DNA from: a virus
Lineage: Duplodnaviria; Caudoviricetes
Length of the DNA: 64,000 bases
Reading direction: 5' to 3' (one strand)
IMG/VR virus record: IMGVR_UViG_2854078061_000001
Span: 32,001-96,000 of that record
The notes under the pieces were generated by a model, which was not told the origin of the DNA, ran no database searches, and saw nothing but the letters and a program-made list of their open reading frames with translations. Shown here one piece after another: positions 12,222-57,292 of this stretch. The position numbers and the translations under genes were made by a program. How positions within the stretch are numbered: the first letter of the stretch is position 1; each line of letters begins with the position of its first letter.

Positions 12222-13613
12222 ATGAAGTTTTATGACACCTCCGCGCTTCTTGATTTGGGAGCCGCCGCTTTCGAACCTGCCAGTGCAACAGCCTCTGGTG
12301 CAACAGAGCCGTTTCTGATTGCCGATATGACGCTGCACGAGCTGGAAGAGATCAAGACAAGCGGCAAGAAGAGCGAAGAGATCCGCTATAAGGCCCGTAC
12401 TGTAACCCGCCTGCTGGCCGAGCATCACGACGACAACACCTTTATGGTAGTGGCAGTCCCCATGTCTTCCCTGTTCTATATCCTGGATGGCAAACCGATC
12501 AGCGATAACAACGACGCGACGATCATGGCAACCGCCCGCTGGTATCTGGACGAGATGAAGCGCAATCTGAATGACGCGATTGAAGCCGGACTCCCGGAAG
12601 CACAGCGACAGATCCAGGCCAACATTGATTCTTTCAGGTTCGTCACCAGCGACCTAAGTTGCGCCAATATCGCCAGCGGCATTCTTGATCTGCCGATCGA
12701 GTTCTCCTATCCCGATGCAGCAGCAAGCGCCAATAATAACTACACTGGCTAGACTGAAGTCACTCTTGATGAAGGCGGCGAGGAAGCCATGGCGATGGCA
12801 TATCAAACCCACGATGAAGGCTATACATATCAGAATCTGTTTGACACTCCAGTGAATGGCTATCTGATTGTTCGTGATCCAGACACAGTAGACGATGATA
12901 TGCCGGCAGGCAATGCGGTAGGCTGGCTACGATGGAATGGCAAGAAATATGTACCACTCAAATACAAAAAGATCAGTAATCGCTTCACTGGCGACGTAAA
13001 ACCACTCAATGACCAACAGAAGCTCGCATTTGATATGCTGCAGAACGACGATATTACAGTTAAAATGCTGGCTGGAACATTCGGCAGCGGCAAGACAATG
13101 CTTATGGTGTCCTCTGCCATTGATATGATCGAGAAGCACAAGGTTGAGAAGCTGATCTGGATTCGCAATAACATCGAAGTCAAGAATACCAAGGAGTTGG
13201 GTGCACTACCTGGCACTCTACTAGAGAAGCTCGGCGCTGCTTCTTTTGCTGGACCTCTGGCTGATCACTTGGGCGGCGAAGCTGGTTTGGAATACTGGAT
13301 CAATAATGGGCAGGTAGAAGTAGCTCACCTTGGATTTATTCGTGGCCGCGACTACAAGAACGCAATTATTATGGTTTCAGAGGCTGAGAATCTGACCAAA
13401 GAGCATGTACAGCTGCTACTCGGCCGTGTTGGTGAAGGATCTATGCTGTGGCTTGATGGCGATCTGAAGCAGACTGACGAGGCCGTGTTTGAAAATAACA
13501 GCGGTATGCGTAAGGCAATTCAGTGTCTGGCTGGCAACCCGCACTTTGGATATGTCTACCTGAACAAGACAGAACGCAGCGAGACCGCACAACTGGCTGA
13601 CCTGTTAGACTAA
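12222..13613 (+). CDS. phoH: PIN-PhoH family ATPase (463 aa; internal TAG 12750 read through)
   Basis: N-terminal PIN (FYDTSAL, ELEEIK, NNDATI, TSD) in frame across TAG with PhoH domain (GTFGSGKT, RGRD, SEAENLT, GDLKQTD). Confidence 0.9.
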
Positions 13614-13627
13614 GGGGGCACAGCAGA

Positions 13628-14240: not shown

Positions 14241-14660
14241 ATGCGCGTTTTATTCGTAAGGTCATCGATCTATGACACAGTATGCGACTGGTATGAACGC
14301 ATGGATACTGTGCAAAAGCATCGCAAGGAGACCGCAATCTGTAAATCACCCGAAGATTTTTGGGATATATTCAATAAAGATAAATTCGGTGCACAATATA
14401 CGACATTCTATTTTGACGATAGGTTGGCGCTGACCGATACTTTTGAATTTTTCAAAGAGATCGCGCGGTTGTATGGTGAAGAGGATGCGAAATATATTTC
14501 AGAAAATAAAATGCGGCGGATCACCATGAACTATTTAATGAACAACAATCAGTTTGACTTGTTCCAGCAGTTCTCCATCACACCCGAATGTCTGGACGAT
14601 GTAATCCATGATGCTCTGGCTGATCAACAGTGTGAATGTGTGTGCAGACCGCTATTGTAA
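14241..14660 (+). CDS. CxCExLL-tag protein 2
   Basis: AGGAG RBS; ends CECVCRPLL*. Confidence 0.8.
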   Translation: MRVLFVRSSIYDTVCDWYERMDTVQKHRKETAICKSPEDFWDIFNKDKFGAQYTTFYFDDRLALTDTFEFFKEIARLYGEEDAKYISENKMRRITMNYLMNNNQFDLFQQFSITPECLDDVIHDALADQQCECVCRPLL

Positions 14661-14674
14661 AGGAGAGGCAAAAT

Positions 14675-15139
14675 ATGGAAAGAATACTAACGCCACGAGG
14701 CGGTGGACGTACATATGCGATATGCGAATACGCTGTCAAGAACAATTGCAATATCTTGGTGCCGATGGGCGGGACGGCTATATTATGTGCACAGGACTAT
14801 ATCAAGGAAATCGCAAGGAATCTTGATATTCAATATTAGGGGTATAGGGTTGATCATCAATGCCTTATAGTAGATTTACAAAGCAGAGCTCGCGGAGAAT
14901 ACAGTATTCACGTGATAACAACTACTTGTCCTCCCGATAATTATCGTGGATTGCACTTAGAGGATAAGCCACTTGTTGTTGATGATATTGACCGATGCTT
15001 TAAGTTCATGTGCTTCCCGAATGTGCGAATTGATGCCTGTTCTCTGATGACATATGATCCGAGCGAGGTTGCGTTTACACCGCCAACTGCACCTCAAGAA
15101 GTGCAGCGGGATGAATGCGTGTGTGACAGCTTGGTATAA
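14675..15139 (+). CDS. CxCExLL-tag protein 3, degenerate P-loop ATPase-like (internal TAG 14837)
   Basis: AAGGAG RBS; PRGGGRT and LVVDD motifs; frame open across TAG; ends DECVCDSLV*. Confidence 0.75.
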
Positions 15140-15153: not shown

Positions 15154-15462
15154 ATGGATAAATTTGATACGCTACATGATGATCGCACGCTGAGATGGTG
15201 TAAGTACAGATATCCCGATGATATCAACAGTGGCGAGTTTACTTTTGACTGGGCGAAAGATGGATTCACATGGACTCTGCCAAGCGATAAACCACTGCGA
15301 ACCACAAACGAAATCGTATCTTACATTGACGCAAATGGTAATCAGCGTGAAGTTCAAGCGGAAGTAAAATACTATGGAATGGGACACGACACGCTGTGGA
15401 CGATTGCAATTCCTAATGTTGTCGAGGCAGAAAACGAGTGTGTCTGCGAATCACTATTATGA
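15154..15462 (+). CDS. CxCExLL-tag protein 4
   Basis: AGAGGT RBS; ends NECVCESLL*. Confidence 0.8.
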   Translation: MDKFDTLHDDRTLRWCKYRYPDDINSGEFTFDWAKDGFTWTLPSDKPLRTTNEIVSYIDANGNQREVQAEVKYYGMGHDTLWTIAIPNVVEAENECVCESLL

Positions 15463-15470
15463 GGCACGAT

Positions 15471-15752
15471 ATGAACAATCAATTATTGATACCCGATGAT
15501 AAGATATACATATATCCATCAGATTGGAAGCAGCCTGTACGAATTCAATTTGAAAATAGATCGACCATAGACACTGTAAATCATGGCAATTCACATCACA
15601 CTATTCAATTCGACAAATGGGTTGATTATAACACCATAGTTACTGATGAAACTTTACAAAAGCTTATCAAAGACTATATATCGAAAAATTTTCCAAAAGA
15701 AGAATACAGTGTATCTATTCACAATGAGTGTTACTGTGAGAGCCTATTATGA
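15471..15752 (+). CDS. CxCExLL-tag protein 5
   Basis: GAGG RBS; ends NECYCESLL*. Confidence 0.75.
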   Translation: MNNQLLIPDDKIYIYPSDWKQPVRIQFENRSTIDTVNHGNSHHTIQFDKWVDYNTIVTDETLQKLIKDYISKNFPKEEYSVSIHNECYCESLL

Positions 15753-16063
15753 AAAAATATATCAGTGAAGAAGTACAACAACAAGCAGCCCTACAATTAC
15801 ATATCGAAATTGAAAATGATTGTAAAATAAAATTTGATAATTTCAGATTTCAAATAGACGAAGACGATATGACGGTTTGCCGCTATGGAGAACCAGATGA
15901 AACGTTTGTAGTTAAAAGGAAAGTAAGACTTTTCTTATTAAATAACGGATTTGAATTCGAAATTGCTGGGCCTTATGCTGAACAGATGTACAGACGATAT
16001 CTTAAACTGATAAATGGAGATATCAATACAAATAGTGAATATTATTGTGAAAGTCTATTGTAA
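15749..16063 (+). CDS. CxCExLL-tag protein 6
   Basis: ATGA overlap with previous gene; ends SEYYCESLL*. Confidence 0.8.
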   Translation: MKKYISEEVQQQAALQLHIEIENDCKIKFDNFRFQIDEDDMTVCRYGEPDETFVVKRKVRLFLLNNGFEFEIAGPYAEQMYRRYLKLINGDINTNSEYYCESLL

Positions 16064-16068
16064 AGAAG

Positions 16069-16338
16069 GTGAAAATATTGGATGAACAAGAGCTAACTGT
16101 AAGAGTTGAAGAAATAGATAATCATTTATTTTCTATGCACGATACAGTGAACCATGCGATTATTAAAGTCGATGAAGCAAATAATCTGTCGCATTTTGCA
16201 GTAGAACGTATAGATACTATAAGAGCAACAACAATTTCGTATCAAACTGCGATTGATCAATTACAAGCTCGAATCGCAGAACTTGAACATAAAATCGATT
16301 TGCTGACAGGGCCATGTATTTGTGAGCCGCTGCTATAA
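16069..16338 (+). CDS. CxCExLL-tag protein 7 (coiled coil)
   Basis: Start GTG 16069 or TTG 16078; heptad pattern; ends GPCICEPLL*. Confidence 0.75.
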   Translation: MKILDEQELTVRVEEIDNHLFSMHDTVNHAIIKVDEANNLSHFAVERIDTIRATTISYQTAIDQLQARIAELEHKIDLLTGPCICEPLL

Positions 16339-16349: not shown

Positions 16350-16625
16350 ATGAAAGAAAACGACTTTTCAAAACAGGATATTTATAATATTGGATTTGCC
16401 GTAGCTGATGCTGTGCGCGATTATGATGTAACTTACGAGGGTATCCTTGACGCGATTCAGGTATATGCAGAATAGCAGGAACTGATCGGCAATGCATCGC
16501 TTTATGATACGTTGTGGATGGAAGATGGTACGCCCATGTCCCCTTCTTTGACACGATATTTATTTCACGAGATGTACTGCCCAGATGATTATGGTTATGA
16601 TGAGGAGGACGGCGACGATGAGTGA
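16350..16625 (+). CDS. hypothetical acidic protein (91 aa; internal TAG 16473)
   Basis: AAGGAGG RBS; VYAE*QELIG; frame continues to a TGA overlapping the next start; absent from ORF track. Confidence 0.7.
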
Positions 16626-17186: not shown

Positions 17187-19730
17187 TTGTTTAGTCCACC
17201 ATTATATAGCGTACTAAAATTTAACTTGAATTATATCGTTTCTCATAACTATAATTTTAAACTGACACCAGAAGAGATGGAGCAGTATGAGGTCTTACAG
17301 GGCGACGATATGTTGTTCAGACAAATTCGGCTCATTTCCGACGACTAGAATAAATTCCAGCGCTTTATTATCTTTGTTGATGCAACAGGTGGCCAGAACC
17401 ACCCTGATGCTATTGATCATTTAGTAGAGCATGGATTCAAATTTAATGGCCAGAAATATCTGTTCTGTGAACGTAGTGCAAGTATGGTCCGTCAGAGCAT
17501 GTTAAGTTTTGTTGAGCGACATATCTACCCTGAACTTGACCGCCGCGTAAGCATGGAACTGGATTTTTCTGAGACACCCACCGTCCTGAGCAAGTATTAT
17601 GCTTATCGTGGTTTGATGCTGAGTAGCTGCCACTGCCTAGAGAACTGGTACCCCAAAATGATTGTTGTTCCAGACTATATGACAACGATCAAGAATCAGT
17701 GGATCGAGTATCTGGTAGACAAGACTGTGACGTTTAATGACCGCAAAACAGGCAAAGAGCGTACCTGGACTCAGAAAGATATCGCCACAAAAACAGTTGA
17801 CATTGATATCAACGCCTTTGATGGCGCTGGAATCTGCCACCCAAGTATCATGCGCGAATTTGAAAAGCGTATCGGCACTTCTGAACGGATGAACAGCTTG
17901 ATTTTGCGTGCTCCATATATCAAGGGTTGCTTACACGAGATTGATTACGAGCGTTTTTTTGAAGAGAACGGCGTTACAAAAATCAAGGACATCTGGGGCA
18001 TGGAATATGATGTAACACCTGGCAGCGAACCAATGATTATTATTACTGCTTCAATGTACAAGGGTCTCAAATATTTCAAGAAAACTGGTACCTATTCTGA
18101 CTGGGAGAGATATTGGGAACTTTTCAAGAAGTACGACAACTGCCTTGGTGTAGCTAAATGGAACTTTACGCTTGAACAAGAACCGCTTTCCACCCGTAGC
18201 AACTATCAGGTCATTCAAGATCTACAGCTCGACAATGAGTCTTTTAAGCATCTAGCTGACGACAGCATTACCTGGTATCAGAATATTGTCAAAGGCGACC
18301 CAATTTATACATACTGCTTCCTTGGTTTACTTGCCGAGAACAACGACCCGATGAATCATTACATGGCTGCTGCCCTGCGTAACCCAGTGATGGTGAAAGA
18401 GCCTGCAATCAAAGATTATATTCACTCGCTGCTTGATAAATATCGCAATGAGATGAAGTGCGGTCGGCTTTGGATGAATGCTACTTTTAAGTTCTGGGCT
18501 CCTGACCTTATTGCACTATTGCAGCACATTGGTGGCCTACCTGTGACTGGCTGCCTTGAAGACGGTGAGTTCTACAGCTTTGATCGTCGTGGTGTGATGG
18601 AGGGAGACCGCTTAATTGAGCGCAATCCCCATATCTCTGTTGCAGAACATGTAAAGGCCAAGGCCGTAGACAACGAATACACCCGCAAATACTGCAGCCA
18701 TCTTCAGAATGTTGCTATGGTAAATATCAAATCCATCGTGGCTTCCAGACTCAATGGTTCGGATTTTGATGGCGACCTGGTTCTAATCATCGATAATCCG
18801 CTGATGATGAGTGGTGTTCCTGATAATATCCCCATTACACTCGATGTTGAAGATAAGATCACTGCGTTGGCAGAATGTGATATTGTGAAGAACAAAGTTG
18901 CCTGCACCATTCGCGGATTGAAGAGTTCTATTGGCGAAATTTCAAACTACGCAACTGCATACCATAATAAGGTTCCGACCATGGAAAAGACCAAGAAGCT
19001 CTATCACGATAATATTTCGCTTTTGAGCATCTGCAACGGAAAAGCTATCGATTATGCTAAAACAGGTGTTCTATATCCGATCCCGCGTAATGTAGCAGCT
19101 TATGGTCGTCCTCTACCCTACTTTATGAAGTATGCAGGCCCTTACTACGCACGTTTACATAATCTCAGCAAGGCACATAGCAACATGAACCTGCTTTGCA
19201 TGAGTCTGGAGCGTTGGGAGCGCGGTGTACGGTGGCGTAAAGAGCCCGCAGGCAGCTTTGATTGGCATATCATGTACGATCCAGAGGTCTCCTATGACCA
19301 GGCAGTCTTTGATGAGATCGAAGCCATTTTCTTGGACTTCAACAAATGCCGCAAGGAACAGCTTGAGTTCGAAAAGAAATGTCGCAACTGGCAATTATAT
19401 CATAAGGACATCGAGTCGCGTATTACCAAAGAAGAGGCTAAGACATATGAGACGAACTGGCAGGCGATCTACAATGTCTACCGTAACAAGTGTAAGCTGG
19501 TGTGTCCTGATGTGAGAGAGCTGGCGAATATTCTTGTAGTGCTTTGCTATGAGAAGTATCCCAATAAATTCAAGAAGTTTTTGTGGCACATGGCCGGCGC
19601 TGGTGTGGTCGAAAATATCAAGCCGGTTCCTGTTCAGCTGCCAGTTCACGATCCGAACGGCGAGTACGAATACCTTGGCCAGCGATATAGTCTGGCTGAA
19701 CCGAAAATTTATGAAGCGAGGGTGAAATAA
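17187..19730 (+). CDS. YonO-like single-subunit (double-psi beta-barrel, RdRP-like) RNA polymerase (847 aa; internal TAG 17346)
   Basis: TTG start with GAGGAG RBS; catalytic NGSDFDGD, ERNPH, DGAG, AIDYAKTG motifs; position upstream of head genes as in SPbeta. Confidence 0.88.
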
Positions 19731-20270: not shown

Positions 20271-21083
20271 ATGGCATATACAACTTTCTACTGTAATGAG
20301 AATATACTGCTCGATCATTGGCAGGACTATCACGAGTCAAATCTGATGCTGCGAAATCTGCTGAAGCGAACCTCCCTCTCCCCTATTGAATGCGCCACCA
20401 TTTATTATGAGCGGATGAAAAATCCTGAGTCTGTCAGCTATGACCGTAGCCACTTGATCCAGACGTTCAGCAGAGGCCGTAAAAATAACGCGCCCATACT
20501 TGACGTACATCAAGTTGTGCTTTATCAGAAAGATCTGGACTATATCACAGAGGCGCGCCGAAAGTATCATATCAACTACGCACAATTACGTGTTCTGTTT
20601 GGGGTAATATTCTTCTGCCGGCTGTATGGAAGCGATACCTTTGCCTTGGATACCGAGTTCAAGATGAAACGTTTTGGTGGCTGCTTTGAAGAGCAGACAG
20701 AGATCATGTATTGCGCTGGGAAGAACTAGGACGACGGCTATAATACAGTGCGGGGCATGAAAGAGATTTCTGACGACTATCACCTGCTGAACAGAACCGG
20801 CACTGACGACATTGGATGCTTATACCAGTACCAAAATTTTGCCCTTGATAAGAATGACACGATTGCGTACACGTTCAATGTGACGCTTGAAAACAATCGG
20901 CTGAATTTAAGCGCCATAGTGCGAGAGCTATTTGACCCGAAGGAATGTTATTGCATCGTGTGTGGCGAACAGTATCACTCAGAAAAGCCAAATGCCAGCA
21001 GATATTGCAAAGGATGTGCGGCAAAGAAAGAACAGGCACGTCTAGCGAAAAAGAATGCGAATCGAAACAAACGACCGAAATGA
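20271..21083 (+). CDS. hypothetical protein with C-terminal zinc finger (270 aa; internal TAG 20727)
   Basis: Frame continuous across TAG; CIVCG...YCKGC. Confidence 0.75.
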
Positions 21084-21365: not shown

Positions 21366-22550
21366 ATGGACGAATTTAAGAAAGCGGACGGCGAGACCTT
21401 TGATGAATATATGATGCGGATTGGTGAGGCATGCAGCGAACGTAAGCTGACTTAGAATCAGGCAGCAGAACTGCTGAATGAAGCAACCGGCTCAGACTAT
21501 GGCGAATGCAGATATCGCAAGACCTATAAGTCGTGGAAAGATGGTTATGACTACGCTATTGATCACGCCAACGAAGAAACGATCCAGGATGAACTACAGC
21601 GACTGAAGATTGAAAAGATCAAATTACAAGATGAACGCAATGCAGCAAACAAAGTGTATCGCGATGTTGCCCGTGCCGAATCCATCAAGGAATTGATTCT
21701 GAAGAACGTTGCTCCGTATAACCCTGACAATTTTCTGAATGTTGTGCAATACGAAGGCAGCGGCCACGATGTGATTGTGTGCTTGTCTGATTTACATGCT
21801 GGCGCGGGTATTGATTCGGCGTGGAATAAGTTCAACAAGGATATCCTAAAGGCTCGGCTTGAGAGTTATGCTGCACAGGTGTTCAATATCGTAGCGCGAC
21901 ATACAGCCGAAAAGATTCATGTGCTGCTGTTGGGCGACCTGATCAATGGGCATATCCATGTTAATACCCGCGTGCAGAACAATGAAAACAGCATTGAGCA
22001 GGTTATGACGGCTGCAGAGCTGGTAAGTAATTTTGTTGCTACACTGTACGAGGTATGCCAGCATATTGACGTGTATTCTGTGAGTGGCAATCATTCACGA
22101 GTATTCCCCAGCAAAGAGGATCAGGTAGCAGGTGACGAACTTGAAGCACTGATTCCGTTCTATATGAAGGCACGACTGCAAAATCTGGCTGGCATTGATA
22201 TTAAAACAGAGAAGCTCGATCCGACCTTTGGTGGCTTTAAGGCTAGGAATAGTCTTGTGATGTACGCACATGGAGATAAGGACTCCCCTGCTAACGTCGT
22301 TGAGCACCTGACACTGATGGTGAAGCAGCCAATCGACATGGTGTTCCTTGGTCACCGCCACACAAACGGCATGACAACGGTGCATGGTACGAAGGTTATT
22401 GAGAGCGGCTGCGTTTGTGGCAGCGATTCCTATGCAATTGGACTGCGCAAAAATGATGTGCCGCAGCAGGCAGTGGCTGTAATCGATGACAGCGGCCTAG
22501 AATGTCTGTACGATGTCAAGCTGGAGAAGCCAGCAAAGATAGTAATTTAA
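21366..22550 (+). CDS. calcineurin-like metallophosphoesterase with N-terminal helical domain, YonJ-like (394 aa; internal TAG 21453)
   Basis: SDLH, GD, GNH, HGD, GHRH motifs; N-terminal KLT*NQAAELLN matches the LTWxxxAxxLN pattern. Confidence 0.85.
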
Positions 22551-22710: not shown

Positions 22711-22974
22711 ATGGAAGAAAAATATCACAAAGATTTAGGAGGCGATTACTTCTACTGCTATTCCAGACGGACAGCACTGTTTGTTCGCGCTATGGGAATT
22801 TTTTACGAAGAGATTGGAGAGCACCCGGTAACTGGCTCTGTATATACAAAATTCCGCAAGACGAAAAAACTGAATGAAGTTTTAAAACTATAGGATCAGA
22901 TCAAATATCGCTTCGATGATATGATGGACGATGGAACGGTGGTGATTGGCTATGGCCAGAGTTGCCGCAGATAA
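22711..22974 (+). CDS. small protein, DUF5659-like (87 aa; internal TAG 22891)
   Basis: YFYCYS...HPVTGSVYTKF...LNEVLKL*DQIK; read-through end overlaps next gene. Confidence 0.7.
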
Positions 22975-23950
22975 GAAACCGCCTCGTATCAAGGTTCCGC
23001 CCTCTTGGAGTGGTGGCAAATGTATGTGTTGCGGAAAAATCTATGACGTGCGCAAAGGTAATTTCTCAAAAACGAAGAGTCAATGGTTTATTGGTAACGA
23101 CGGATACCTCCCGTGGTGCAATGAGTGCCGTGAGAAGATGTTTGAGTTTTATGTTAAGAAGTATAACGATGAAGATGAAGCGATTGACCGTCTGGCTATG
23201 ATGTTCGATACCTATGTAAATGATAAATTGCTTGACGCATCAGAACATTCTGTGGCATCTGCTTTAAAAATTAACACCTATATGGGACGGCTTAATATAC
23301 GTCAGTATGCAGATAAATCTTATGACGATGTGATCGACCAGAAGAAAAAAGACGCTTTGGCTGCCGGTGATACAAAGGGGACAAAGGTCACTCTGAAGAT
23401 GAGAAAATTCTGGGGTACTGGTCTGGATGAAAAAGATTATTTATTCCTTGATGAGCACTATCAAAATCTTATCACTAGACATGAATGTAAGACGGCCGCA
23501 CAAGAAATTCTGTTCAAACGCATTGCAAAGGCAGAACTTAATTGCGATAAGGCTGATGCCACTGGCGACACAAAGAAAATAAAAGAAGCAAACGACAACC
23601 TGCAGAACCTGATGGGGTCCGCTCAGATCAAACCGAATCAGACGAACGATAACGCATTGGCTGAAACGAATACTTTTGGCACGCTGATTCAGAAATAGGA
23701 AGAGGAAGAGCCGATTCCAGAACCGTCGCCAGAGTGGCAGGACGTTGATGGTATCGGTAAGTATTTTAGAGTGTGGGTGCTGGGTACGTTGCTTAAGATG
23801 TTCAACTTGAAGAATCCATATCAAGACGAATTTGACGAAGAGTTTGAACGATATACTGCTCATAAACCAGAGACAAATGAGGACGATGACACAGATACTA
23901 GCCTCCGCGAAACTATTTTCGGTATTGGCGAAGGCGGTGGTTCCGCATGA
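22952..23950 (+). CDS. putative terminase small subunit, YonG-like (332 aa; internal TAG 23696)
   Basis: N-terminal CxxC...CxxC; FGTLIQK*EEEEPIPEP; read-through TGA forms an ATGA overlap with the terminase large start. Confidence 0.75.
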
Positions 23951-43268: not shown

Positions 43269-43295
43269 CTGCTGTACAGCCATCATAATGAACAA

Positions 43296-43331: not shown

Positions 43332-43358
43332 GCATTGCTTTTTACGACGGTCTATGAT
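43330..43358 (+). promoter_or_regulatory. sigmaA-type promoter inside the intron
   Basis: TTGCAT-17 nt-TATGAT. Confidence 0.6.
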
Positions 43359-43385
43359 ACACTCTTGTAAAAGGAGTGTTAAATC

Positions 43386-43529: not shown

Positions 43530-43538
43530 TTAAATGAC

Positions 43539-44120: not shown

Positions 44121-44123
44121 ATG

Positions 44124-44164
44124 AAAAACACCTAGAACTGACGAGGTTCCGGGTGTTTTATTTA
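44124..44164. terminator. bidirectional terminator between convergent cargo genes
   Basis: AAAAACACC...GGTGTTTTATTT hairpin. Confidence 0.65.
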
Positions 44165-44186
44165 TGCCATACGAGTTAGACACGTC

Positions 44187-44630
44187 TTACCATTCATACC
44201 CACAATTCTTACACTTGAACTGATGACGCACTTTACTAGAGAAGACACCGAACAGAGCGAACGACACTGCTTTGGATGTACCGGAAATTTTTTCGATATC
44301 AGGTGATCCACAAGTCGGGCACTTTGGAACGTACTTCGGGGTCGGCTTCTTTTCTGGCGGCTTACTCCCCTGCTCTGCGAGATATTTACGAATCTGGGCA
44401 TCTTCTTTGTCAAATTCATCAATCCATTCAGGATGATTCCCTGGTCCATACATTGGTTTATATTCTTTTGGCTGTTTCATTTTCGATAAAATTTCAGCTT
44501 TCCCCTCATCATTCGCTTTTATCCATTTTTTATAATCAGTCAACAAACATCCACAATGGTAACATACAAACTTCGGCCAGTATGCCAATCTTCCGCAATG
44601 CGGACAGACTTCAATTGTTTTGTCATCCAT
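44187..44630 (-). CDS. zinc-ribbon protein (147 aa; intron cargo, antisense)
   Basis: Four CxxC motifs; PKCPTCGS...FKCKNCGYEW; GAGGAG RBS. Confidence 0.8.
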   Translation of the reverse strand: MDDKTIEVCPHCGRLAYWPKFVCYHCGCLLTDYKKWIKANDEGKAEILSKMKQPKEYKPMYGPGNHPEWIDEFDKEDAQIRKYLAEQGSKPPEKKPTPKYVPKCPTCGSPDIEKISGTSKAVSFALFGVFSSKVRHQFKCKNCGYEW

Positions 44631-44656
44631 AAATTCTTTTCTCCTCAAGAAAACCG

Positions 44657-47600
44657 ATATTATCTTTCCTGACAGCTTATTCCGTTGATAAAGACGGCAA
44701 TACTGTTGGTGGATTAAAACAGTTGACATCTTCCGCTAAAAATCTTGTAACACAACTAAAGAAAACTTTCACTACTGTATCTGTTGGCTATAAGAATTTT
44801 AAAGATATGGACGAAGCTGTTCGTGGCAGTGGTTCTTCTTTCTCTGATTATATCAGATGGGCATCAGAAAGTGAAGAGGCAACTGAAGCTTTTGGTCTTG
44901 CAACCTTGTACGCTAAAGCTCGTGTTATTGCACTCAATATGGCCGTAGGTGCTGGCATTGGTTTAGTAGTTTCTTATTTCTCAAAGAAAATTATCGAAGC
45001 AGCGCAACGTACAGATAAACTCGCAGAATCTTCCAAAGAAGCAGCAGATGCTGCAACCAACACAAAAACTTCTTTGAAAGAACTCGCAGATGAATATGAA
45101 AATCTTGGAGATAAATCGACCTAGGACACTGATAGTTATGACAAAGCGAAAGGCATTCAGGAACAAATTCTTCAACTCGCTAAAGATCAGGGTACATTAG
45201 ACGAAGATAAAGTCAACAAAATTGATCTTCAAAATGGTAAATACGAAAATCAACTTGCTGTTTTGAAAAAAATTCGTGAAGAGCAAGTTCGTGCTTCTAC
45301 TGATGACTATGAAGATGATAAGAGAAGGCAAGGCCAGAAATTAGTTAGCGATGCAAAAAGCGCTGTTGACGGTGGCTATGTTTTAACTTCGTCTTTTGAT
45401 CACGATATGGCTGAAGATTTACAGGCTCAAGGTTTCAACCTCTTTAAAGGTATTAGTAATAACTCACTAGTCATCGGTCCCGAAGATCCAAATGATCCTC
45501 AGTCGGTTCTTGACTGGTATGACGATCTTACCGAAGCCTTAAAAGTATTGAGAAAGCAATATTCTGATGCTGACCTTGAAGAGAAAGGTATCTATGAAGG
45601 CTTGTACAATATTCTTTCCGCTCAAAAAGAAGCGTTGGATGATCAGGTTGCTGCTTACAGAAATTCCGCTGATGTTCTGAAGAAGAATAAAGAAGAAGTT
45701 GGTAAATACGATCTTTCTAATGATCTTTCTGCAAGTAAAAACTTCCGTGACAATCCGCAGCCTCTGTCCGATTCTGAAGAAGCCAAAATTGATTCAAAAA
45801 TCCAAAAGACGAAAGAGTATAAGGACGCAGTCGAAGAAGCCCAGGAAACAGAAGCCAAGTGGGAATCTGGCGGTTTCAATAAGTATGGCAACGTTGATAA
45901 TTTCAACCGTGATAAGATTGACTGGACCAAAGAGAATCTCGAAAAGTATAAAGATTTTGTTGCTGAGCAAAACAAATTCAACCCTGGCGAAATAGAAGAA
46001 GGTGGATACTCCACTGTTCTCGGCGTATACGACAATCTTTATAGAGAAAGCCCCGAAATGCCGCTCATGGCTTACACTCCGATGCTTCAGACTGAAGATG
46101 GCCTTGTTCCGCTTACCGAAGATCAGGTGCGCAGCTATATTGAGACTATTGCAGAGAAGTGCTGGACAGAAGATGACACCATTGACCTCGACAAGTTAAT
46201 GAAGCTTGATGCTACCGGACTTGAGCGAGACATCAATGGTGAGATGATTCGTGTCAAAGGCATGATTGCAGGTGTTGAGGGCGGCACTGGTTCTGATGGT
46301 AAAAAGCTCACAAAAGCGGATATCATGGCTATCTCTGGTTCAAGCAATGACGAAATTGCTCAAGAACTGTATGGTGGGGAAATGGGCGATTATTCTGGCA
46401 TGGGCTGGTTGAGTAAATATATTGGTCGTTCTATGCATGACGCTCAGGCTGTTGCCCAAGAAGGTAAGGATAATATTGAATCGATATATGACAGTCTATA
46501 TGATAACCTTGCATATGGGAACGATATTACCACTAAGAATCAACTCTCAAATGATTTACAAGGTGCTTTTGATGATATTGCCGAATCTCTTGGTAAAGAC
46601 TCTCGTGCAATGACAGTATCTGATGTTGTTGGTCTTACTGCCGATGATGTAGAATTAACTGACGAACAGGCCGCAGCTATCAATACTCTTACAGAGGCAG
46701 CCACGAAATACAAGACTTCTATTCAGGGTGTGGCTGAAGCTGGCGAAGAAAATGGTATGTTTGGTGGTATCGAAAATGCCGTAAATGGCGTATCGTCTGC
46801 TATTCAACAGATGGAAACCATCTCTCAGAATATAGACAACATCCAATCTGCATATAAGGCTTGCACAACCGCTATGGACGAATATAACAAGTATGGTTAT
46901 ATGAGTGCAGACGCTTTGCAGGGTCTCTTGAGCATGAATGACGAGTATCTTGCATGTCTGGATGTTGTAGATGGAAAGTTAAAGATCAACAACGAACGTT
47001 ATGCTGATCTAATTGTTGCGCAGTATACCGAAGCTGAGGCAACCGCAATCGATCAAGCCATGAACGAACTCAATGCGCTTCAAAAGGAAGATGCTAAGAA
47101 GAAAACCGAGGATTTAACGACCGCCACCGAAGAGCAGCAGACCGCCCTTGAAAATGCCGTACCCGCTATCCAAAATGCAACAACCGCTACCGGTGACTTA
47201 GCTATCGCTCTGGCGACCGCACAAGGAGCAGCCGAAGGCGATGACGCAATGCAGGCGAAAATTGACACAATAACAGCCGCATTGAATACTCGTCTGACCG
47301 CTATTCATAGTAATATGCAGACTGCTATTAAAGGCGGAAAAGAGCTTAAAAACCAACTTAATGGATTTAACAAAACAAATAAAGGATCAAGCTCCAAGTC
47401 TGTAACAGATGCTGCATCCGCATTCGATACACTGACAAAAGCCATGAAGGAATATAACCAGTATGGCTATATCACTGTCGAAACCATGAAGTCTCTTATG
47501 ACTTTGGAAGATAAATTTACGTCTTGCTTAGTAAAAAATGGAGACCATTTAGAAATCAATGCAAATGCGTTTAGAAAGTTAGTAGAAAATCAATTAAAGG

Positions 47601-50600
47601 AAGAAGAGGCGAACGGGAAAGCGTCTAAGAAGGCAACCGAATTGTCTCGAATCCTTTCGTATTTGGATAAAAATGTTCACTCTTCTACAATTACATTTGA
47701 ACAGCTTACGGATGCGATTAAAGGATATGGTTCTGCTCTTTCTGATGCTAAAGCTGTAACAGATGACTTTAAGGGTGTTTGGGACAACGGAAAAGTAGTC
47801 AAGGAAAAGACAAAAAAGAGCCGTACTGGTGCTCTGGATTATGAAGGCACTGAAGCTCAAAGTGCCGCGCTGCAATCCATTAAAAAGTATAGTGAATATG
47901 ATCCGGATCTGATCAATAAAGCCTACAATAAAGATACTGGTAAAATCGACCTAAGTGGTGATGTGTTAAAGGATGCAGTCGTTAAATCTTTGGAACAACA
48001 GGCAAAAGCCGCCAGAGATGAGAACAACGCGGCTGCCAATGCAATTGCTGATAGTTATGAAACTGCTGCCAATAATATCAAGAACAACGTTATTTCTGTT
48101 CAAGACTACTTCGACGGACTGGGTTCTACGGTTGAAGAGTTTAGCTCCAAGATCGACGATATGCAGAACGCATGGACCGATTTGAGCGATGTCACAAACG
48201 AGTATAACACTTACGGCGGTTTGAGCATTGACAGTATTCAGAAACTGCTTACAATGTCTCCCGAGTATCTGCAGTTCCTCAAATTGGAGGGCAACCAGCT
48301 CGTCTTTAATAAAGAAGCGATGCTGGCAAAAACCAAGGCCGACATTCTGGCAAAGGCTGCAGAGCTCGAACTAAAAGATGAGACCAAAGATCAAGCAGAG
48401 ATTCTACGTGCGTTGGCGGATTCTCTTGATAAGGGCGCAGATTCGATGGAGGGCATGGGCAAATCGGCTGACAAGCTGAAGACCCTGATGTCCCAACTGA
48501 ACACTGTTTTGAATTCTTTTATCGGTGTTTTTGATGACTTGAACGACAAACAGTCCAACGACCTCAAGATTCAGGGTGAAGCTTGGATCGATGTTATTGA
48601 CAAGCGTATTGACGCACTCAATGAAGAAAACGATGCACAGGAGCGATCAATCGAACTGGCAAAACTTCAGGATGAATACGAGCGTGCAAAGGCCAATAAG
48701 ACTGTTCATGTATATGGCGGCAGAGGTCAAGGTTTTGTATGGAAAGCAGATGAAAATGCCGTTCGTGAAGCTGGGAAAAACCTATCTGACAAGCAGCGTG
48801 AATATAAGAAGAAAGATGAAATTGACAAGCTGGAAAAGCTCAAAGATAAAGTTCAGGAAACCAATAATCTTATTGGCACCAGCTGGGATGATTATCAGAA
48901 GAAGCTGAAATACACAGCCGAGTTCGAGGCTATGACATTTGAGCAGATGGAAGGTCACTATGACGGTTTCAAGAGTAGTGTCCTTAACAATATGCAGGCC
49001 ATTCAGGGCGCGACAAACGTCAAGAATGTTATCACTGATATTTCCAATTTGATCTCTACTTTGGAGACACTGGCGAATATTTTGAACATTCTTAATGGCG
49101 GAAGTGGTGACGGCGGCGGAGTCTTTGGCTTCATCAACCAAATCAAGAACATGTTCACTGGCGAAAACGGTGATTTTGATCTGGGTGGTGGCTTTAAGAA
49201 GATGTTCGATGGAGCTGCTAAGGTGGTTTCTGACGGTTGGAACTGGATCACTGGTAAGAACAGGGCTGGTTCTGCCGCACTAAAATCAGACACCACTGCG
49301 ACATTGGATATCCTTGGCAACACAATAAAGGTGAATACCGGCGATATTCAGCGTGTATCTGGTGGATTCTTTGAGAGACTAGTTGGTGCTGCGAAAGACA
49401 ATCTTGGCAGTATCGGTAAGTTCTTCTCAGGTGCATAGACATCTATCTCTGAGAAAACCGGATTGATGTTTACTGATATTGGCTCGTTCTTCACAGAAGG
49501 ATTTGGCCTGTTGAACAGTCAGACAGGACTTGGTCTTGGTGGCATTGTTGAGACCGTCGGAAGTATGTTTGGCCCAATTGCGGCTGGAGCACAGTCTATC
49601 GGTAGTGCCATCTCGTCTGGCGTTGTAAGCTTCTTCCCTTCTATCTTCGCCGGACTTGGTACTCTGGTGACTAGCGTTGGCAGTGCAATGGCCGCTATGA
49701 TGCAAGCGATTGCTGCTGCTCTTTCTTCCATTCCTATCGCTGGTTGGATTGCTGCCGCCGCAGCTGTTGCAGGTGCAGTTGCTCTAATTGCTACGATTGC
49801 TTCGATTGCAAGTAATGTTTCCAATACACAGGTTGATGAACCTACTCCCGCATTCCAAGCAAAGAAATATGCAAAGGGTACTCGTGGCGTTAAGAAGAGC
49901 CAGATTGCAAACGTTGATGAAAAGGGCGAAGAGCTGATTGTTCGTAACCCAGACCAGGGACGCATGACCTACCTTGAAAAGGGCGACGGTGTTATTCCTG
50001 CAAAGGAAACCGACAACCTGATGGCGATTGGCGCTGACCCCGAGGGCTGGCTGGCAAAGGGCTTGGCCGAAGTGACTGGTAGTGCCGCAGCCGGTGCCGG
50101 TATGAGTGCCCAAGGTCCGAGCGCTCAGTTGAGTGGTGCTGCAGCTGCCGCAGCCGCTGGCGTTGGTTCGATTTTCAAGAGCGAGTATGACGAGATCCTT
50201 GGCGATACAACTGAGTTTATGTCTGGACTCTCTGACATCTTCAAGAAGAGTGATAATCCGATTATTGCCGCCGTTCAAAGCATGATTTATATGGCCACTA
50301 AGACTGTATATCGTATGTCTACGGTCGGTAAGATTAACTCTTCTAAGACAGTGACAGAATCCACCAGCAACACAAAGAAGGCGACCCAGAGCCAAATTTC
50401 GTCTATGACGAGCAACTTTGAGTCTAGCTGGAAATCTGTGGCTGGCGAGCTCGGTCTGGACACAAAGGATATTGAAGAAACCAGCAAAAAGATGTCTGAG
50501 AAGATGAATGAGCTGGTGAACAACACCTTTGATGCGCTGAACGAAAACACCGGCCTTAGCGCCGAGCAGGTTGAAGATGTCACCAACACGATGTTCGATT

Positions 50601-51751
50601 CGCTGCAAAAGATTTATACCAGCGGATGGAACAGCCTTGCTTCCACTTCCGGCGACATGTCTAAAGAGATTGCGGATAAGCTGAATGCGTCTTATAAGTC
50701 TTCTGTTGATAGCACAAATAAGGCCATGAACGAGATCTCCAAGGCATTCGGTCACAGCTGGAGTAAGGTTGGTGGCGGTGTAAAAACCCTGAGCACCAAT
50801 GTTCAAAAGACAATGGAGCAGGCATGGGCTGACACCAGCCAAGACACCCAGAAGCTGATGTACGATATGCGTGCGTGCTTTGACAATAGTTGGAGCATGA
50901 ATGAGGCTGGTGTAACTCATCTGGCAGACATGACTGAGCAGACCATTGGCGGTGCTTATGACGAGATCACCTCTGATGCCGCAAATACGTTTGGTAATGG
51001 CGGTTCTCTGTCCACTGAGACAGACAACGCATGGGCGAATGTTGAGCCTGGCGCAAAGGACATTAACACCAATCTGACATGGATGATGGACCAGTCTTAC
51101 AACGCCATCAAGGCTGGATGCGAAGCTGCCGTTACATCGATTAAAAACGATTTGGCGACCACAGGCGATGCATTTGAAGCTGTTGGTAAGAAGGCTGCTG
51201 ATACTTCTGCCGCAATCAGTGAAGCAAGTCAGAAAGCACAACAGAGCACACAGCAGAATACCGGTCCAAGCAAGGGCGTGACTGCCGCTGCTGGTGCGGG
51301 CATCGGCGCTGCCGTTGGTTCATTCCTTGGGCCTCTGGGTGCAATTGGCGGTGCTGCAATTGGCGGTTTCTTTGGCAGTCTGTTTGGCCATGCAAATGGT
51401 CTGAAGTCTGCTAAGTTCCCTCACATGGCTAATGTTGATGAGCAGGGTCCTGAGATGTTGGTTCGTAAGCCGGATTCCGGTCGGTATACTTATCTTGAGA
51501 CTGGCGATGGTGTTGTCCCTGCCGATATCACCTCTCGCCTATTCGAGATGGGCGGCAACCCGGATGCATGGTTCCAGAAGCAGATGACAAAGTACGGTTC
51601 TCAGCCGATTGTTCAGGGCGGCGGTGGAGATGTTACAACTTCGATTGGCGATATTATTATCACAAATCCCGTTGGCAGCTCTGATGCTCTGGCAAATGAA
51701 ATCAAACAGAAGTTACCGACTAAGGTTGCTCAAATGCAAAGTAAGCGGTAA
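44657..51751 (+). CDS. tail tape measure protein, exon 2 (2364 aa; internal TAG 45122 and 49436)
   Basis: One frame from 44657 to TAA 51751 apart from two TAGs; EYNxYG repeats, hydrophobic segments, AxG...NVDExGxE C-terminal motifs. Confidence 0.85.
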
Positions 51752-53046: not shown

Positions 53047-54815
53047 AACCAATTCTATCTAAAATCGGCGCATTTGATGCCACAAAGGATCATACATTTC
53101 AGTTTGCCGCATACGCAGACATTGATATCATTGCTCTTATCGTCTTCGATACTCCGACGGGCAGTATTTTGCAGGGTGATACGCTTTCAAAAGGCGTGTA
53201 TAAGTTTGGTACATTCCCTGCCGGTGGCACTGGTCTGGCACGATATTTTACAATTCCGGCAGGCACGTTTGAGAACCGCAAAGATCCGTATTATATGATC
53301 ATTCGCTGCCGACTGAAAGGCACGAATCTGTTTTCAGAATACTCTGACAAACTGTTGTTTTATTGTCACGAGGAACCAACAATCAAACTGAACGACCTGA
53401 GTTCCTCTGGCGTGACTACTATCCCCTACCCTTCTTATTCCTTTGAGTTCTCTTACAAGTATAAGGTATCGGAGGGTGAATCAGTCAATCGTTATGAATT
53501 TTGGCTCTATGATGCGAACCGCGAGCTGCTGAAAAAGTCAGTGAGCTACTATTATCGCGACTCATTGAAGGGGTTTCAGATCGATGGACTGGATAACCAT
53601 ACCCTGTACTATCTGAGAGCGACGGCAGAATCTGTTGGCGGCTATCAGCTGGACACTGGCTTACAGGCGTTCCGAACTGACTATCCAGAGTATGTGGATG
53701 ACGTAGAATTCACCGTGCAGAATAATTATCGTATGGCTAATATCAGTATGCACGCACAGTATTTCCTAACAAGAAGCAGTGGTGCAAATGCCCTGCGAAT
53801 CAAGCGGCGCAAGAAAGGCGCAGCAATCTGGACTTCGCTTTATCAGGAAGAGATCGACTTGAACCATGTCATTATGAAGATGGGCTGGTCGAACCTTCAC
53901 ATCAATAAAACGACTGGTCAGCCGATGGGTAACTATAAGGCAGTTACCTCGGATTATATCGACAAGAATCGAGTTCTTTCTTTCCAGTTCAAATCTGAGG
54001 ACAAAGCGTTCTGTCTGATTGCATATACCGCTGACCGCAAGTTCATCAAGGCATCAAGTGATTTTGCATCGACCGACGAATTCAGAAGTTCCAGCGAGTA
54101 CAAGGAGTGGTTCTCTGAGACCTTCTTGAACAACATGAAATACTATCGTGTTGAGGTATCGGCAACAAAGAATCAGGATTTGGAGCCAAAAGACTTCAAT
54201 GACTTTTATATGTACAGCGCTGACGATGGTTATGTGATGATTGACTACACCGACCTGTACGCCATTGGCCGCAAGACCGACTATGAGTACGCCGTAGCTC
54301 CAGTTGCAAATGGCATTGAGCTTGGTTATGCAAAGGCCAGCGTTGTAAGTGACTTTGATGGTGCTGTAATCACTGACGGCAATAAGACCTACCATATCTT
54401 CCTTGAACCAAAAGTTGACAGTGTTGAGAAGGTGCGTTCTGCTACAGTTGTTGAGACGATGGGAAGCAAATACCCGTATCTGTTTGCTGGCAGTGAAGCC
54501 AATTATTACAGCGGCCACTTCTCTGGTGTTGGCATCCGTTTTGATAACACAATGAAAGACTTTGATATCAATGGCGGCAATGCATTCCGTGATGAACTGA
54601 GCGAGTGGCTGACCAACGGCAGTGCGAAGCTACTGAAGATGTTTGATGGCCGCAGATGGCTAATGGGTGTCAATGGCAATGTGTCTATCTCCTGCTCTGA
54701 TCATTACGACAAGGGCGTATTGGAGTTCGACTTTGTGGAGCTCGGTGACGCAGAGAGTGAGAGCGACATGTATAACAATGGGCTGAGTGATTATCAGCCG
54801 GGAGGCAGCGTATGA
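53043..54815 (+). CDS. distal tail/baseplate protein with FN3-like domains
   Basis: Beta-rich; GLDNHTLYYL and YEYAVAPV FN3-like strands; C-terminal Dit-like region. Confidence 0.65.
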   Translation: MKPILSKIGAFDATKDHTFQFAAYADIDIIALIVFDTPTGSILQGDTLSKGVYKFGTFPAGGTGLARYFTIPAGTFENRKDPYYMIIRCRLKGTNLFSEYSDKLLFYCHEEPTIKLNDLSSSGVTTIPYPSYSFEFSYKYKVSEGESVNRYEFWLYDANRELLKKSVSYYYRDSLKGFQIDGLDNHTLYYLRATAESVGGYQLDTGLQAFRTDYPEYVDDVEFTVQNNYRMANISMHAQYFLTRSSGANALRIKRRKKGAAIWTSLYQEEIDLNHVIMKMGWSNLHINKTTGQPMGNYKAVTSDYIDKNRVLSFQFKSEDKAFCLIAYTADRKFIKASSDFASTDEFRSSSEYKEWFSETFLNNMKYYRVEVSATKNQDLEPKDFNDFYMYSADDGYVMIDYTDLYAIGRKTDYEYAVAPVANGIELGYAKASVVSDFDGAVITDGNKTYHIFLEPKVDSVEKVRSATVVETMGSKYPYLFAGSEANYYSGHFSGVGIRFDNTMKDFDINGGNAFRDELSEWLTNGSAKLLKMFDGRRWLMGVNGNVSISCSDHYDKGVLEFDFVELGDAESESDMYNNGLSDYQPGGSV

Positions 54816-57292
54816 CATATCTTCCGACTGACGCAGACCTGGCGCTATTGAACAATCATTCGTCTAATATTTACTGCCGCATTGATATGCTGAACAAAGA
54901 TTTTATTACAATTGATAGTTTGGAAGGTCTTGTGATCGATGGTTCTATTTCTATCGACTCAGAATCTGACGTGCGGCGAACCTTTAATGTGACCTTGTAT
55001 CTGGGTAAGAAGAGCGGCATTTCAAGCCTGACGGAAGAGGATTGGATCAGTAAAAATGTGCGTGTATTCATTGGTCTGTCAGGAAGAGGAATGTCGAAAA
55101 TCAGTGCTTCAAAGAGTATTGACGAGATGATCAGGGAAAATGCGGATTATCAGCTCGCTGCGACGAATTATGATGATTTGATTCAGGACATCACAAATAG
55201 AGGCTATGCAAAATACGGCAATATCGACAATCTGAATCGAGATGTGCTAGTGTGGACACGAGCCAATATCTCAAAGTATCATACGTTCTTTGACCAGATC
55301 AATGACGGCACGCCACCGGATGACCCAGCTGAAGCAGAAGAATGGTACACCAAACTTGGTGATTACTCTACAGTTTTGGGAAGTGATGACCCAATTTGTC
55401 AAGATGGCCCTTATATCGCATTTACACCGATGCTGCAGACCAAAGACGGACTTGTGCCGCTTGTGAAGGATGATATCTGGGCTTATCTGGATGCTGTGGC
55501 AACAAAAGCGAAGTCAATGAGCGGCGGTCTCTCCCCTGCCAATATCTTTGAGGTAGATAAATCAGGCATCGATAGTTTCGTGTATGGTAACAAAATGCAT
55601 GTCCATGGGATGATTGCTGCTGTTGAAGGTATGGTTCTGAACGGAGTTACGCTTGGTAAGGTGGATGTTTCTGCTATTGCCGGTTAGAGTGAGGACGAAT
55701 TAAGGGAGACCTACGGAAAAACCAGTGTGTTTGCAGGACATTCCATGCACGACATTCAAGCAGAAGTGATTGACACAAAGACCGCGTTGAATGAGTTGTA
55801 TAACGACCTGTTCCTTAGCTATTCCAATTCAGCTGATAATTCTTATGTTAATGGTGTAAAAATCTATTGGTACAACGAGAGGTGCTATACATTTACATCC
55901 AATGGCTTTACATATAGCGCAACAGAAAACACTGTGCAGGCCAGCTGTGTTGACTTGGTTTCTCGTACCAACGGAGACTTGGGTGGACAGCTGGTTGGTG
56001 GTACACATCGCATTGAGAAAGGCACTCGTATCGGTGATGCCATCTGGACGGTGATGAGAGATGAGACGGAGTTTAAGAAATATTCTATCGACTATTGGAG
56101 CCGCACTGTTCCACATGACTTGGATTATGATACTGGCTCGACTGTTTGGGATATTCTCTCAGAATTGCGTGACCTGTATTATCCGTTTGAGATGTATTTT
56201 GACGATGATGTGTTTGTATGCAAGGAAATCCCCAGTGGATTTGACGACCCGCCTGTACTTGACCCGGAAGTATTCGAGAAGCTTGTGACAAACGATGGCG
56301 AATCGGCCACGGTGGATTATTCCGCTGTTCGAAACTGTGTCGAAGTGTTTGGTGCGACGATTGAAGCGGATGGAGCTGCAACTGTAAAAGGATGGTCTGG
56401 AACAAATAAAACAATCAACCTTGTATTGAACGCAACCGAATCAACATGGAAAAGTGAAACGAAAGTATCTTTTGTGGCTCCTGCAAATGTTGAAGCTGCC
56501 AAGACGGACAAAAATGGCAACGTAACAAGTGGCGCTATGACAGTTGTGTTGACATTTACATGGAAGTACAAGGATAAAGACGGCAATGAACAAGTTGGCT
56601 CTGAGACAAAGACCAGCACGCTGTATCGTTCTTTGACTGATGCCAATGGTTCAGATGTCATTCAAGACCCCGGATGTATTAAGGCTACAAAGTATTATGT
56701 TCTTCAGTGGAATCCGAATACTGGCCGCATCTACTTTTTGGGCCAACAGCAGAGTCACGCTATGGCAAAACTGGTGGACGAAATCCCAGCTACCAAAGAG
56801 ATCGAAGCTCAAAAGGCAGAAGATAACTGCGACAATATGGCTTTTATCTGTGTGAATGACCCGAACAATATTGACGACCTGTACAATGCACGGTTATCCA
56901 TTGAAAAGATCGGTCGTAGAACTGAGATTCTATCGGGTGGAGACTACGAGAATTACACCACGGATGACGCAGCCATGGAAGTTTGTCAATACGAACTGTG
57001 GAAGCGTGCCCGCCTGACGGACGGCCTGAGTGTGACCACGCGACTGGTTCCGTGGCTCGACGTGAATGAAAAGATTCAGTATGCTGCCAAATATCTGGGC
57101 GGTAAGACCCCCGTGGATTGGATCATCAAGAGCATCTCTATGAATCTTGGCGAAGGCACAATGTCACTTTCTTTGAGCCGCTATTACCCCTATTACACTT
57201 ATATCGTAAACAACAAATATACGTTCTATCAGGACAATTTGTTTGATAAATATTTTCCCGAATTAACTGCCACTACGGCAGATGAACAATAA
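54812..57292 (+). CDS. baseplate hub/tail protein, DUF5048-like, with inserted domain (826 aa; internal TAG 55685)
   Basis: GSISIDSESDVRRT N-terminus and VPWLDVNEKI C-terminus joined in frame across TAG. Confidence 0.75.

Follow-up and report, generated by a model that had tools for sequence, protein, structure and literature searches.

We analysed a window of 64,000 nucleotides from a Caudoviricetes phage (bases 32001–96000 of IMG/VR record IMGVR_UViG_2854078061_000001, a 108-kb 'provirus' estimated to be 73% complete), in which rightward-transcribed late genes are interrupted by in-frame TAG (amber) codons. These TAGs are sparse, evenly spread over genes and confined to the late arm, and the codons found in their place among related phages indicate that UAG is read here as tryptophan and not as glutamine. 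TAG use and the type of one phage tRNA go together: relatives with in-frame TAGs carry a Trp-like tRNA with the anticodon CUA, and relatives without them carry a tRNA-Trp(CCA) instead. The best-supported mechanism is suppression of UAG as Trp by the tRNA(CUA), on which completion of key late proteins would then depend.

Genes in the window run leftward up to ~11.5 kb and rightward from ~11.6 kb past the window's end. The rightward arm encodes a PIN and PhoH protein, a YonO-type RNA polymerase (RNAP), a metallophosphatase/exonuclease, the small and large terminase subunits (TerS and TerL), portal, capsid and tail proteins, a tape measure and a giant protein of 2271 amino acids (aa). An IMG/VR portal scan gave 73 related loci (82–99% identity), and we fetched five complete relatives of 138–151 kb, four of them recoded (G001, G002, G004 and G005) and one TAG-free (G003). 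Family-wide comparisons covered about 70 related genomes, with 44 genomes in the recoded clade.

The original prediction had described 13 genes with exactly one TAG between positions 12222 and 57292, and the same 13 were recovered (Table 1), together with three TAGs in the two long open reading frames (ORFs) of the tape measure. A seventeenth TAG lies just before this range, at 11962, and further ones lie beyond the window, for instance in an M15 lysin; the TAG at 33247 was rejected as coding, being upstream of the true ATG at 33262. Ambers sit in the RNAP, both terminase subunits, the portal, a gene of the head–tail region, the tape measure and a tail protein (the 'hub' of the prediction), and none is supported in left-arm ORFs, in ORFs inside the gap of the tape measure or in the giant gene at 57308, which also lacks TAG in five relatives. 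TGG remains the dominant Trp codon (184 TGG and 17 in-frame TAGs in the 44 ORFs of the rightward arm, small ORFs included), and TAG density is correspondingly low, with 17 codons in 49 kb here and ~17–36 per genome in late arms. Reading through TAG fuses adjoining ORFs into full-length proteins, and hidden Markov model matches run across the TAGs in PhoH, RNAP, exonuclease, TerL and portal; coding density rises only from 0.909 to 0.930.

The claim that TAG stands for Trp was borne out by its counterparts. Across the family, 33 of 40 distinct TAG sites have TGG as the counterpart and 3 have CAR (CAA or CAG). As TGG makes up 6.6% of the one-step neighbour codons of TAG, this is a large excess (P ~1e-32), and it also holds against CAG, the other transition neighbour (P ~8e-14). 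For most TAG sites in the window, relatives show either TAG or TGG; the sites without a Trp origin are 14837 (Tyr), 17346 (Tyr or Asp) and 11962 (Gln). As in alternatively coded phages, the in-frame stops lie in conserved genes and homology continues across them. Over the late genes from RNAP through portal in about 70 genomes, the aligned matches contain no other stop codons (frameshifts not scored separately), and the same TAGs are seen again in assemblies from many separate metagenome datasets, which excludes decay and sequencing artefact as their source. Two other ways of decoding UAG were rejected. Genetic code 15 (TAG = Gln) is at odds with the 33 TGG sites against 3 CAR sites and with the Trp-type body of the tRNA, and pyrrolysine decoding is at odds with the TGG counterparts and with the lack of PylS (TIGR02367) in the five complete relatives.

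The original prediction had also invoked a phage factor whose expression would permit suppression, and a candidate was found in the leftward arm of the four recoded complete relatives, as well as in all 19 recoded relatives checked. It is a Trp-like tRNA(CUA), located between tRNA-Ser(UGA) and tRNA-Lys(UUU) in a tRNA cluster of G001, G002, G004 and G005. The TAG-free G003 has tRNA-Trp(CCA) in the same slot. A pattern scan paired 24 relatives with their tRNA type, and TAGs were counted within 10 kb either side of the portal: the CUA carriers (19/19) have 4–9 in-frame TAGs there and the CCA carriers (5/5) have none. Of the features expected of a bacterial tRNA-Trp, the CUA tRNA has the G73 discriminator, a Trp-like D arm and anticodon loop (CUCUAAA vs CUCCAAA) and the cluster slot, with CUA in place of the CCA anticodon. 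The nearest sequences outside its own group are tRNA-Trp(CCA), at 70–78% identity. Because the CUA tRNAs occur as several diverged sequence types, the suppressor cannot have arisen by a point mutation in the very recent past. No release factor, tryptophanyl-tRNA synthetase (TrpRS) or PylS is encoded in the five complete relatives; lacking a phage TrpRS, the tRNA(CUA) would require charging by a host enzyme, presumably with Trp.

A Trp-like tRNA(CUA) was also seen in a second, unrelated phage family (G006 and G010, IMG/VR contigs of 132 and 137 kb, TerL ~30% identical), where it lies directly upstream of TerL and is 79% identical to that of G001. In-frame TAG is very sparse in this family; for example, G010 has TAG at codon 63 of TerL where G006, at 99% identity, has TGG. 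We did not use this family as an independent test, as its TAG counterparts are mixed (TGG, CAG, TTC and others) and its gene calls uncertain.

Restriction of TAG to the late arm, the refuter of which would be equal TAG use in early genes, held in the complete relatives. Their TAG/TGG sites lie in rightward genes only, in a stretch that opens at PhoH or shortly before it, takes in the M15 lysin and reaches the far right end; the one exception is a small ORF on the + strand within the initial 300 bases of the linear G002 record. Left arms contain 307–323 TGG codons and no TAG with a TGG counterpart, compared with 17–36 TAGs in the late arm. The leftward arm of G002, for example, has 116 ORFs, 323 TGG codons, two ORFs ending in TAG and no TAG/TGG site, where ~35 would be expected at the late-arm frequency. 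Even in the non-recoded sister G003, few ORFs use TAG as a genuine stop (4/169), which matches the depletion-first path of Borges et al. (10.1101/2021.08.26.457843).

We assessed the spread of TAGs over genes by allotting the 17 TAGs randomly to the 201 Trp positions in ORFs of the rightward arm. In expectation 11.1 ORFs would carry TAG, and 16 do (P = 0.0024 with the tape measure as two ORFs, 0.008 with it merged and 0.034 for 12222–57292 only), and a null based on gene length gave similar P values. The spread is even in relatives too (G001, P = 0.002; G002, P = 0.002; the diverged G004, P < 1e-4). Small Trp-poor genes have TAGs above expectation and large Trp-rich genes below. As this spread exceeds random placement, TAG is not sampled freely from Trp codons, and random sampling, which had been named as a refuting outcome, was not what we found, at modest significance (P 0.002–0.03). 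The proposal of 'one gate per gene' survives as a tendency towards even spread and not as a rule, considering that genes of relatives have 0–3 TAGs and that 28 of the 44 late ORFs here have none. Whether one amber per gene is itself selected is a point that the data neither require nor exclude, and we regard such selection as a possibility on the doubtful side.

Comparison with synonymous sites gave a measure of selection on TAG. Within the recoded clade, 493/670 twofold A/G synonymous sites (Lys, Glu and Gln codons) are polymorphic (74%) and 42% of these codons end in A; of the Trp positions, 18/55 vary between TGG and TAG (33%), TAG frequency is ~11%, and 37/55 are never TAG. Change counts were obtained by parsimony on a terminase–portal tree. 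TGG-majority sites underwent 0.76 changes vs 1.64 for G-majority synonymous sites, which argues that TAG gains are selected against. The TAG-majority sites (20271:153, 21366:30, 22711:61, 22946:251 and TerL:449) underwent 1.8 changes vs 1.45 at A-majority synonymous sites, close to the synonymous rate, so established TAGs are neither protected nor purged; the same parsimony counts gave no extra conservation of these sites. An assay of whether persistent TAGs avoid Trp positions conserved in distant homologues had no power, since most Trp positions are variable there.

The base following TAG was also considered. A 3' purine favours amber suppression. Between 12222 and 57292, 15 of 16 TAGs are followed by a purine, as claimed, and none by T, the exception being 16473, which is followed by C. 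The bias stands in the window as a whole (16/17 after TAG vs 66% after TGG, P = 0.009, a modest value) and at TAG sites present in at least 3 genomes (20/23), and it does not extend to all distinct TAG sites (74% vs 68%, not significant). This pattern fits weak selection for a suppression-favouring context.

We consider it somewhat better than an even bet that the whole is explained by tRNA-dependent suppression of UAG as Trp in a temperate siphophage of the SPbeta type with a genome of ~145 kb, with TAG kept sparse by its cost and late proteins de facto locked. The lineage would have converted a phage Trp-type tRNA into an amber suppressor with the anticodon CUA, and UAG would be read as Trp while this tRNA is expressed from the leftward arm. 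TGG-to-TAG changes would then be tolerable only in rightward late genes, which would be translated when the tRNA is present. Competition from host release factor 1 (RF1) at UAG probably leaves decoding incomplete, which would keep TAG rare: selection would hold it at 8–11% of Trp positions, usually with no second TAG in the gene and with a purine following in most cases, and would keep it out of the left arm. Full-length RNAP, PhoH, exonuclease, both terminase subunits, portal, tape measure, tail protein and, beyond the window, the lysin would need the tRNA, and this need would act as a lock. The most economical view is that genes come close to one TAG each as a side effect, because TAG is scarce and a second one is selected against; no 'one gate per gene' design favoured by selection has to be invoked. 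Of the original prediction, then, the reading of TAG as Trp, the confinement to the late arm, the tRNA factor and the non-random spread were retained and a strict gate in every gene was not; its terms 'partial' and 'switchable' would correspond to the likely incomplete efficiency of decoding and to the presumed timing of tRNA expression.

Several observations weigh against this explanation. None of the six tRNAs of the record, the window included, has a CUA anticodon by ARAGORN, also at lowered thresholds (intron mode gave only noise). As the record begins ~35 kb into the map of the complete relatives, past their first tRNA cluster, that cluster is absent from its 108 kb, and the tRNA(CUA) probably lies in the missing ~37 kb, judging from relatives at 95–98% nucleotide identity over ~80 kb. 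Given a CUA anticodon, the tRNA-Trp of E. coli is charged with Gln (PMC2965240, citing Yaniv 1974), so that we infer Trp insertion at UAG only from the pattern of codon substitutions. A portal scan of species-representative bacterial genomes, aimed at the host, gave no prophage copy, and a host search with the Trp-like CUA tRNA pattern matched only unrelated organisms. A uniform cost per TAG is difficult to square with the free toggling of some sites (10 changes at 32765:137 and 6 at 31723:288). Neither does a pure cost model explain the five old, high-frequency TAGs that lie one each in five neighbouring genes of the packaging module (post hoc P ~0.001), or the diverged RNAP alleles with one TAG each at different sites.

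These last features are accommodated by an adaptive gate, which we hold to be possible and clearly the less probable account, in which selection actively retains one amber as a safety catch in every late gene with a hazardous product (RNAP, nucleases, terminase and lysin), and late transcripts that leak out in the lysogen yield nothing but truncated proteins as long as the phage tRNA is absent. A UAG = Trp code would on this account be a key and lock, with tRNA-Trp(CUA) as the key and one amber per hazardous late gene blocking a leaky lytic start in the lysogen; we would put it forward only tentatively. The TAG-bearing set is indeed rich in proteins that are harmful if mistimed (RNAP, PIN/PhoH, exonuclease, terminase and lysin), the old TAGs are grouped in the packaging/nuclease module, with one in the lysin too, and such a gate agrees both with the model of Borges et al. 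(10.1101/2021.08.26.457843) and with the uneven odds of TAG placement among genes, which depart from random. Gene 20271 carries a TAG in 20/20 allele clusters of the recoded clade, and the two genomes, within one cluster, that lack it at aa 153 have one at aa 186, where all others have Gln. The RNAP carries TAG in 9/13 allele clusters, at aa 20, 54, 306 or 325 and mostly exactly one, and the hub gene, gene 31723 and TerL have TAGs at differing sites in diverged lineages. The original prediction had named different amber sites in the same genes of relatives as a sign of selection for a gate, and such sites were seen for RNAP, 20271, hub, 31723 and TerL; however, this turnover is also expected if a second TAG is merely harmful, by chance gain followed by loss of either copy. 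Further points against a maintained gate are the 28 TAG-free late ORFs, the TAGs that occur in only a minority of the 44 recoded genomes (portal in 8, gene 31723 in 7 and gene 32765 in 17), the 2–3 TAGs in each of some far-right genes of relatives, the reversion of TAG-majority sites at about the synonymous rate, and the presence of TAGs in the tape measure and tail protein, which are not hazardous.

Free neutral reassignment, with TAG and TGG fully synonymous in late genes and drifting in a young code change, is improbable. A few sites do toggle like synonymous ones and TAG-majority sites do change at the synonymous rate, but Trp positions are less than half as often polymorphic as twofold sites (33% vs 74%), mean TAG use is far below that of A-ending Lys, Glu and Gln codons (~11% vs 42%), two-thirds of the Trp positions (37/55) are never TAG, the spread over genes is non-random, and the diversification of the CUA tRNA into several types means that the change is not very recent. 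Slightly less probable still is that the TAGs are not decoded as Trp at all, being Gln codons of code 15, nonsense mutations in decaying prophages or sequencing artefacts, since the lack of an ARAGORN suppressor call in the window's own record, the glutaminylation of tRNA-Trp(CUA) in E. coli (PMC2965240) and the three sites with Gln or Tyr counterparts are set against overwhelming TGG counterparts, late genes from RNAP to portal without other stops in their aligned matches (~70 genomes, frameshifts not scored separately), recurrence of the same TAGs across many separate metagenome datasets and perfect tracking of TAG use by the tRNA anticodon.

Returning to the individual sites (Table 1), that at 12750 is TAG in the four recoded complete relatives and TGG in one, which can only be the non-recoded G003. 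TerL of other relatives has its TAG at aa 25, 65, 88 or 281. The position homologous to 40834 in the tape measure, queried from G001, is TAG in four complete relatives and TGG in one, and for 45122 no counterpart was found in relatives. A probable endolysin beyond the window (record positions 105982–106629), an M15 peptidase that also has a peptidoglycan-binding domain, has TAG at codon 12; this codon is TAG in the window's genome and in G002, and TGG in G001, G003, G004 and G005. PHROG and Pfam searches assigned no function to many of the small TAG-bearing genes.

Table 1 Features of the window, with in-frame TAG positions and their counterparts in relatives.
Feature	Coordinates	Strand	In-frame TAG	Remarks
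Leftward arm, part in window	1–11540	−	none supported	
Small ORF	11878–12222	+	11962	CAA in G005, TAG in G001/G002; coding status weakly supported
PIN + PhoH-like ATPase	12222–13613	+	12750 (aa 177)	PHROG match aa 28–461
167-aa gene, no function assigned	14636–15139	+	14837	TAT (Tyr) in G002/G004; TAG in G001/G005
91-aa ORF	16350–16625	+	16473	TGG in 23 relatives, TAG in 20; C next in all
YonO-type single-chain RNAP	17187–19730	+	17346 (aa 54)	PF05183, phrog_8308, matches aa 11–813; counterpart Tyr or Asp
270-aa gene, no function assigned	20271–21083	+	20727 (aa 153)	TGG in TAG-free clade
Metallophosphatase/exonuclease	21366–22550	+	21453 (aa 30)	TAG in 12/13 allele clusters; TGG in TAG-free clade
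87-aa gene	22711–22974	+	22891 (sole Trp position)	TAG in 45 related sequences, TGG in 30
YonG-like small terminase	22946–23950	+	23696 (aa 251)	Synteny with Sundance, PJN02; TAG in 15/18 allele clusters
Large terminase (YonF-like)	23947–25704	+	25291 (aa 449)	TAG in 37 relatives, TGG in 41
Portal	25704–27227	+	26679 (aa 326)	phrog_2739 match aa 29–499; TAG in 9/77 relatives, rest TGG
Major capsid protein homologue	29703–30698	+	0 (0 Trp codons)	Same position as PJN02 major capsid protein
Head–tail region gene	31723–32763	+	32584 (aa 288)	TAG in 7 relatives, TGG in 63; TAG at aa 88 in G004
165-aa gene	32765–33262	+	33173 (sole Trp position)	TAG in 17 relatives, TGG in 52
Tape measure, first long ORF	36832–42408	+	40834	Tape-measure PHROGs
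Tape measure, second long ORF	44723–51751	+	45122, 49436	49436 = TAG in G001, G002, G005
Tail protein ('hub')	54812–57292	+	55685 (aa 292)	G004: TGG here, TAG at ~aa 633
Giant 2271-aa tail-end protein (to 64123)	57308–64000	+	0 (38 TGG)	P = 0.028, single genome

The two long ORFs of the tape measure are separated at 42408–44723 by 2.3 kb in which both strands hold small ORFs without PHROG matches; the relatives are split alike, and Rfam at gathering score detected no intron in this gap. Other features were noted outside the TAG-bearing genes. Three consecutive small proteins (15438–16338, + strand) have unrelated bodies and a shared extreme C-terminus, C-x-C-E-[SP]-L-L. The leftward arm has a Pistol ribozyme (RF02679, 66.5 bits at a gathering score of 34.5) at 7311–7377 on the − strand, at the 5' end of ORF 6868–7383. 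About 3.9 kb before the window, ARAGORN made an odd call, c[28024-28114], a 91-nt 'tRNA-Ile(UAU)' whose variable arm is long and whose anticodon stem is weak, at the cluster place of which G001 has a long tRNA-Met(CAU). Odd calls also lie at c[31900-31972] and c[32490-32562] of G001/G002, and one tRNA with a two-base anticodon call appears as 'tRNA-Tyr(AUA)' in G004/G005. The first 3 kb of the record, also before the window, contain a 560-aa ORF that resembles a large serine recombinase by eye; these 3 kb are without counterpart in the complete relatives, which have a weak tyrosine-integrase-like ORF at that map point; this start of the record may represent a different integration module or a prophage end.

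A widely shared view is that gut phages recode stop codons to time their lytic programme. To our knowledge, this role has not been tested, partly as recoded genomes usually hold hundreds of recoded codons. The system described here is distinguished by having ~17–36 TAGs per genome, one identifiable tRNA and a sister clade with neither TAGs nor CUA. With so few TAGs, one tRNA and a TAG-free sister, every TAG could be reverted or the tRNA removed, and whether the ambers are a lock or tolerated drift can be asked directly. Reading UAG as Trp would fall outside the two phage reassignments reported and run contrary to the E. coli expectation that a tRNA-Trp(CUA) becomes a Gln tRNA. It also matters for annotation, as under code 11 or code 15 a gene caller will break these genes up or translate them wrongly.

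The nearest laboratory parallel is provided by amber mutants of T4 and lambda, in which essential late genes are cut by a single UAG and growth needs the tRNA of a suppressor host. The arrangement here differs in being natural and conserved in a clade, with the suppressor carried by the phage itself (seen in the relatives). Another parallel is E. coli Su7, in which the anticodon of tRNA-Trp is changed from CCA to CUA (Yaniv et al. 1974, as cited in PMC2965240): it shares the Trp-type body, the CUA anticodon and the reading of UAG, but it is a laboratory chromosomal mutant and not a phage gene, is charged with Gln by GlnRS and, as described there, has no dependent gene set.

Gene order and distant similarity (portal 33–42% identical) tie this phage to SPbeta-type phages of Bacillus and Brevibacillus. 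With SPbeta, Sundance, PJN02 and Sophrita it shares the order PhoH, YonK-like, metallophosphatase, YonG (TerS), YonF (TerL), portal and capsid, including the YonG/YonF/portal module, as well as a YonO-type single-chain RNAP, which transcribes the late genes in SPbeta (PMC5467207) and, judging from the genes alone, would do so here. Those phages differ in having no in-frame TAG in the aligned genes; where TAG is persistent here, they have Ile, Val, Phe or His.

Closest in kind are recoded gut phages (Borges et al., 10.1101/2021.08.26.457843; crAss-like and Lak phages; phAss-1, PMC10607447), with which this system shares in-frame stops in conserved genes, a phage-encoded suppressor tRNA with the matching anticodon (here in relatives), enrichment of recoded codons in late, structural and lysis genes, integration and early genes compatible with the standard code, prior depletion of the recoded stop and a proposed role in lytic timing and the lysogeny switch. 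It differs in the meaning of the codon: among phages whose code differs from that of the host, Borges et al. (10.1101/2021.08.26.457843) saw only TAG = Gln and TGA = Trp, and the phage papers that we searched likewise gave these two and no TAG = Trp. It also differs in scale, as many genes are fragmented in those phages and only 17 TAGs occur in 49 kb here, and in offering a direct comparison with sister genomes that lack TAG and have tRNA-Trp(CCA) at that place of the cluster.

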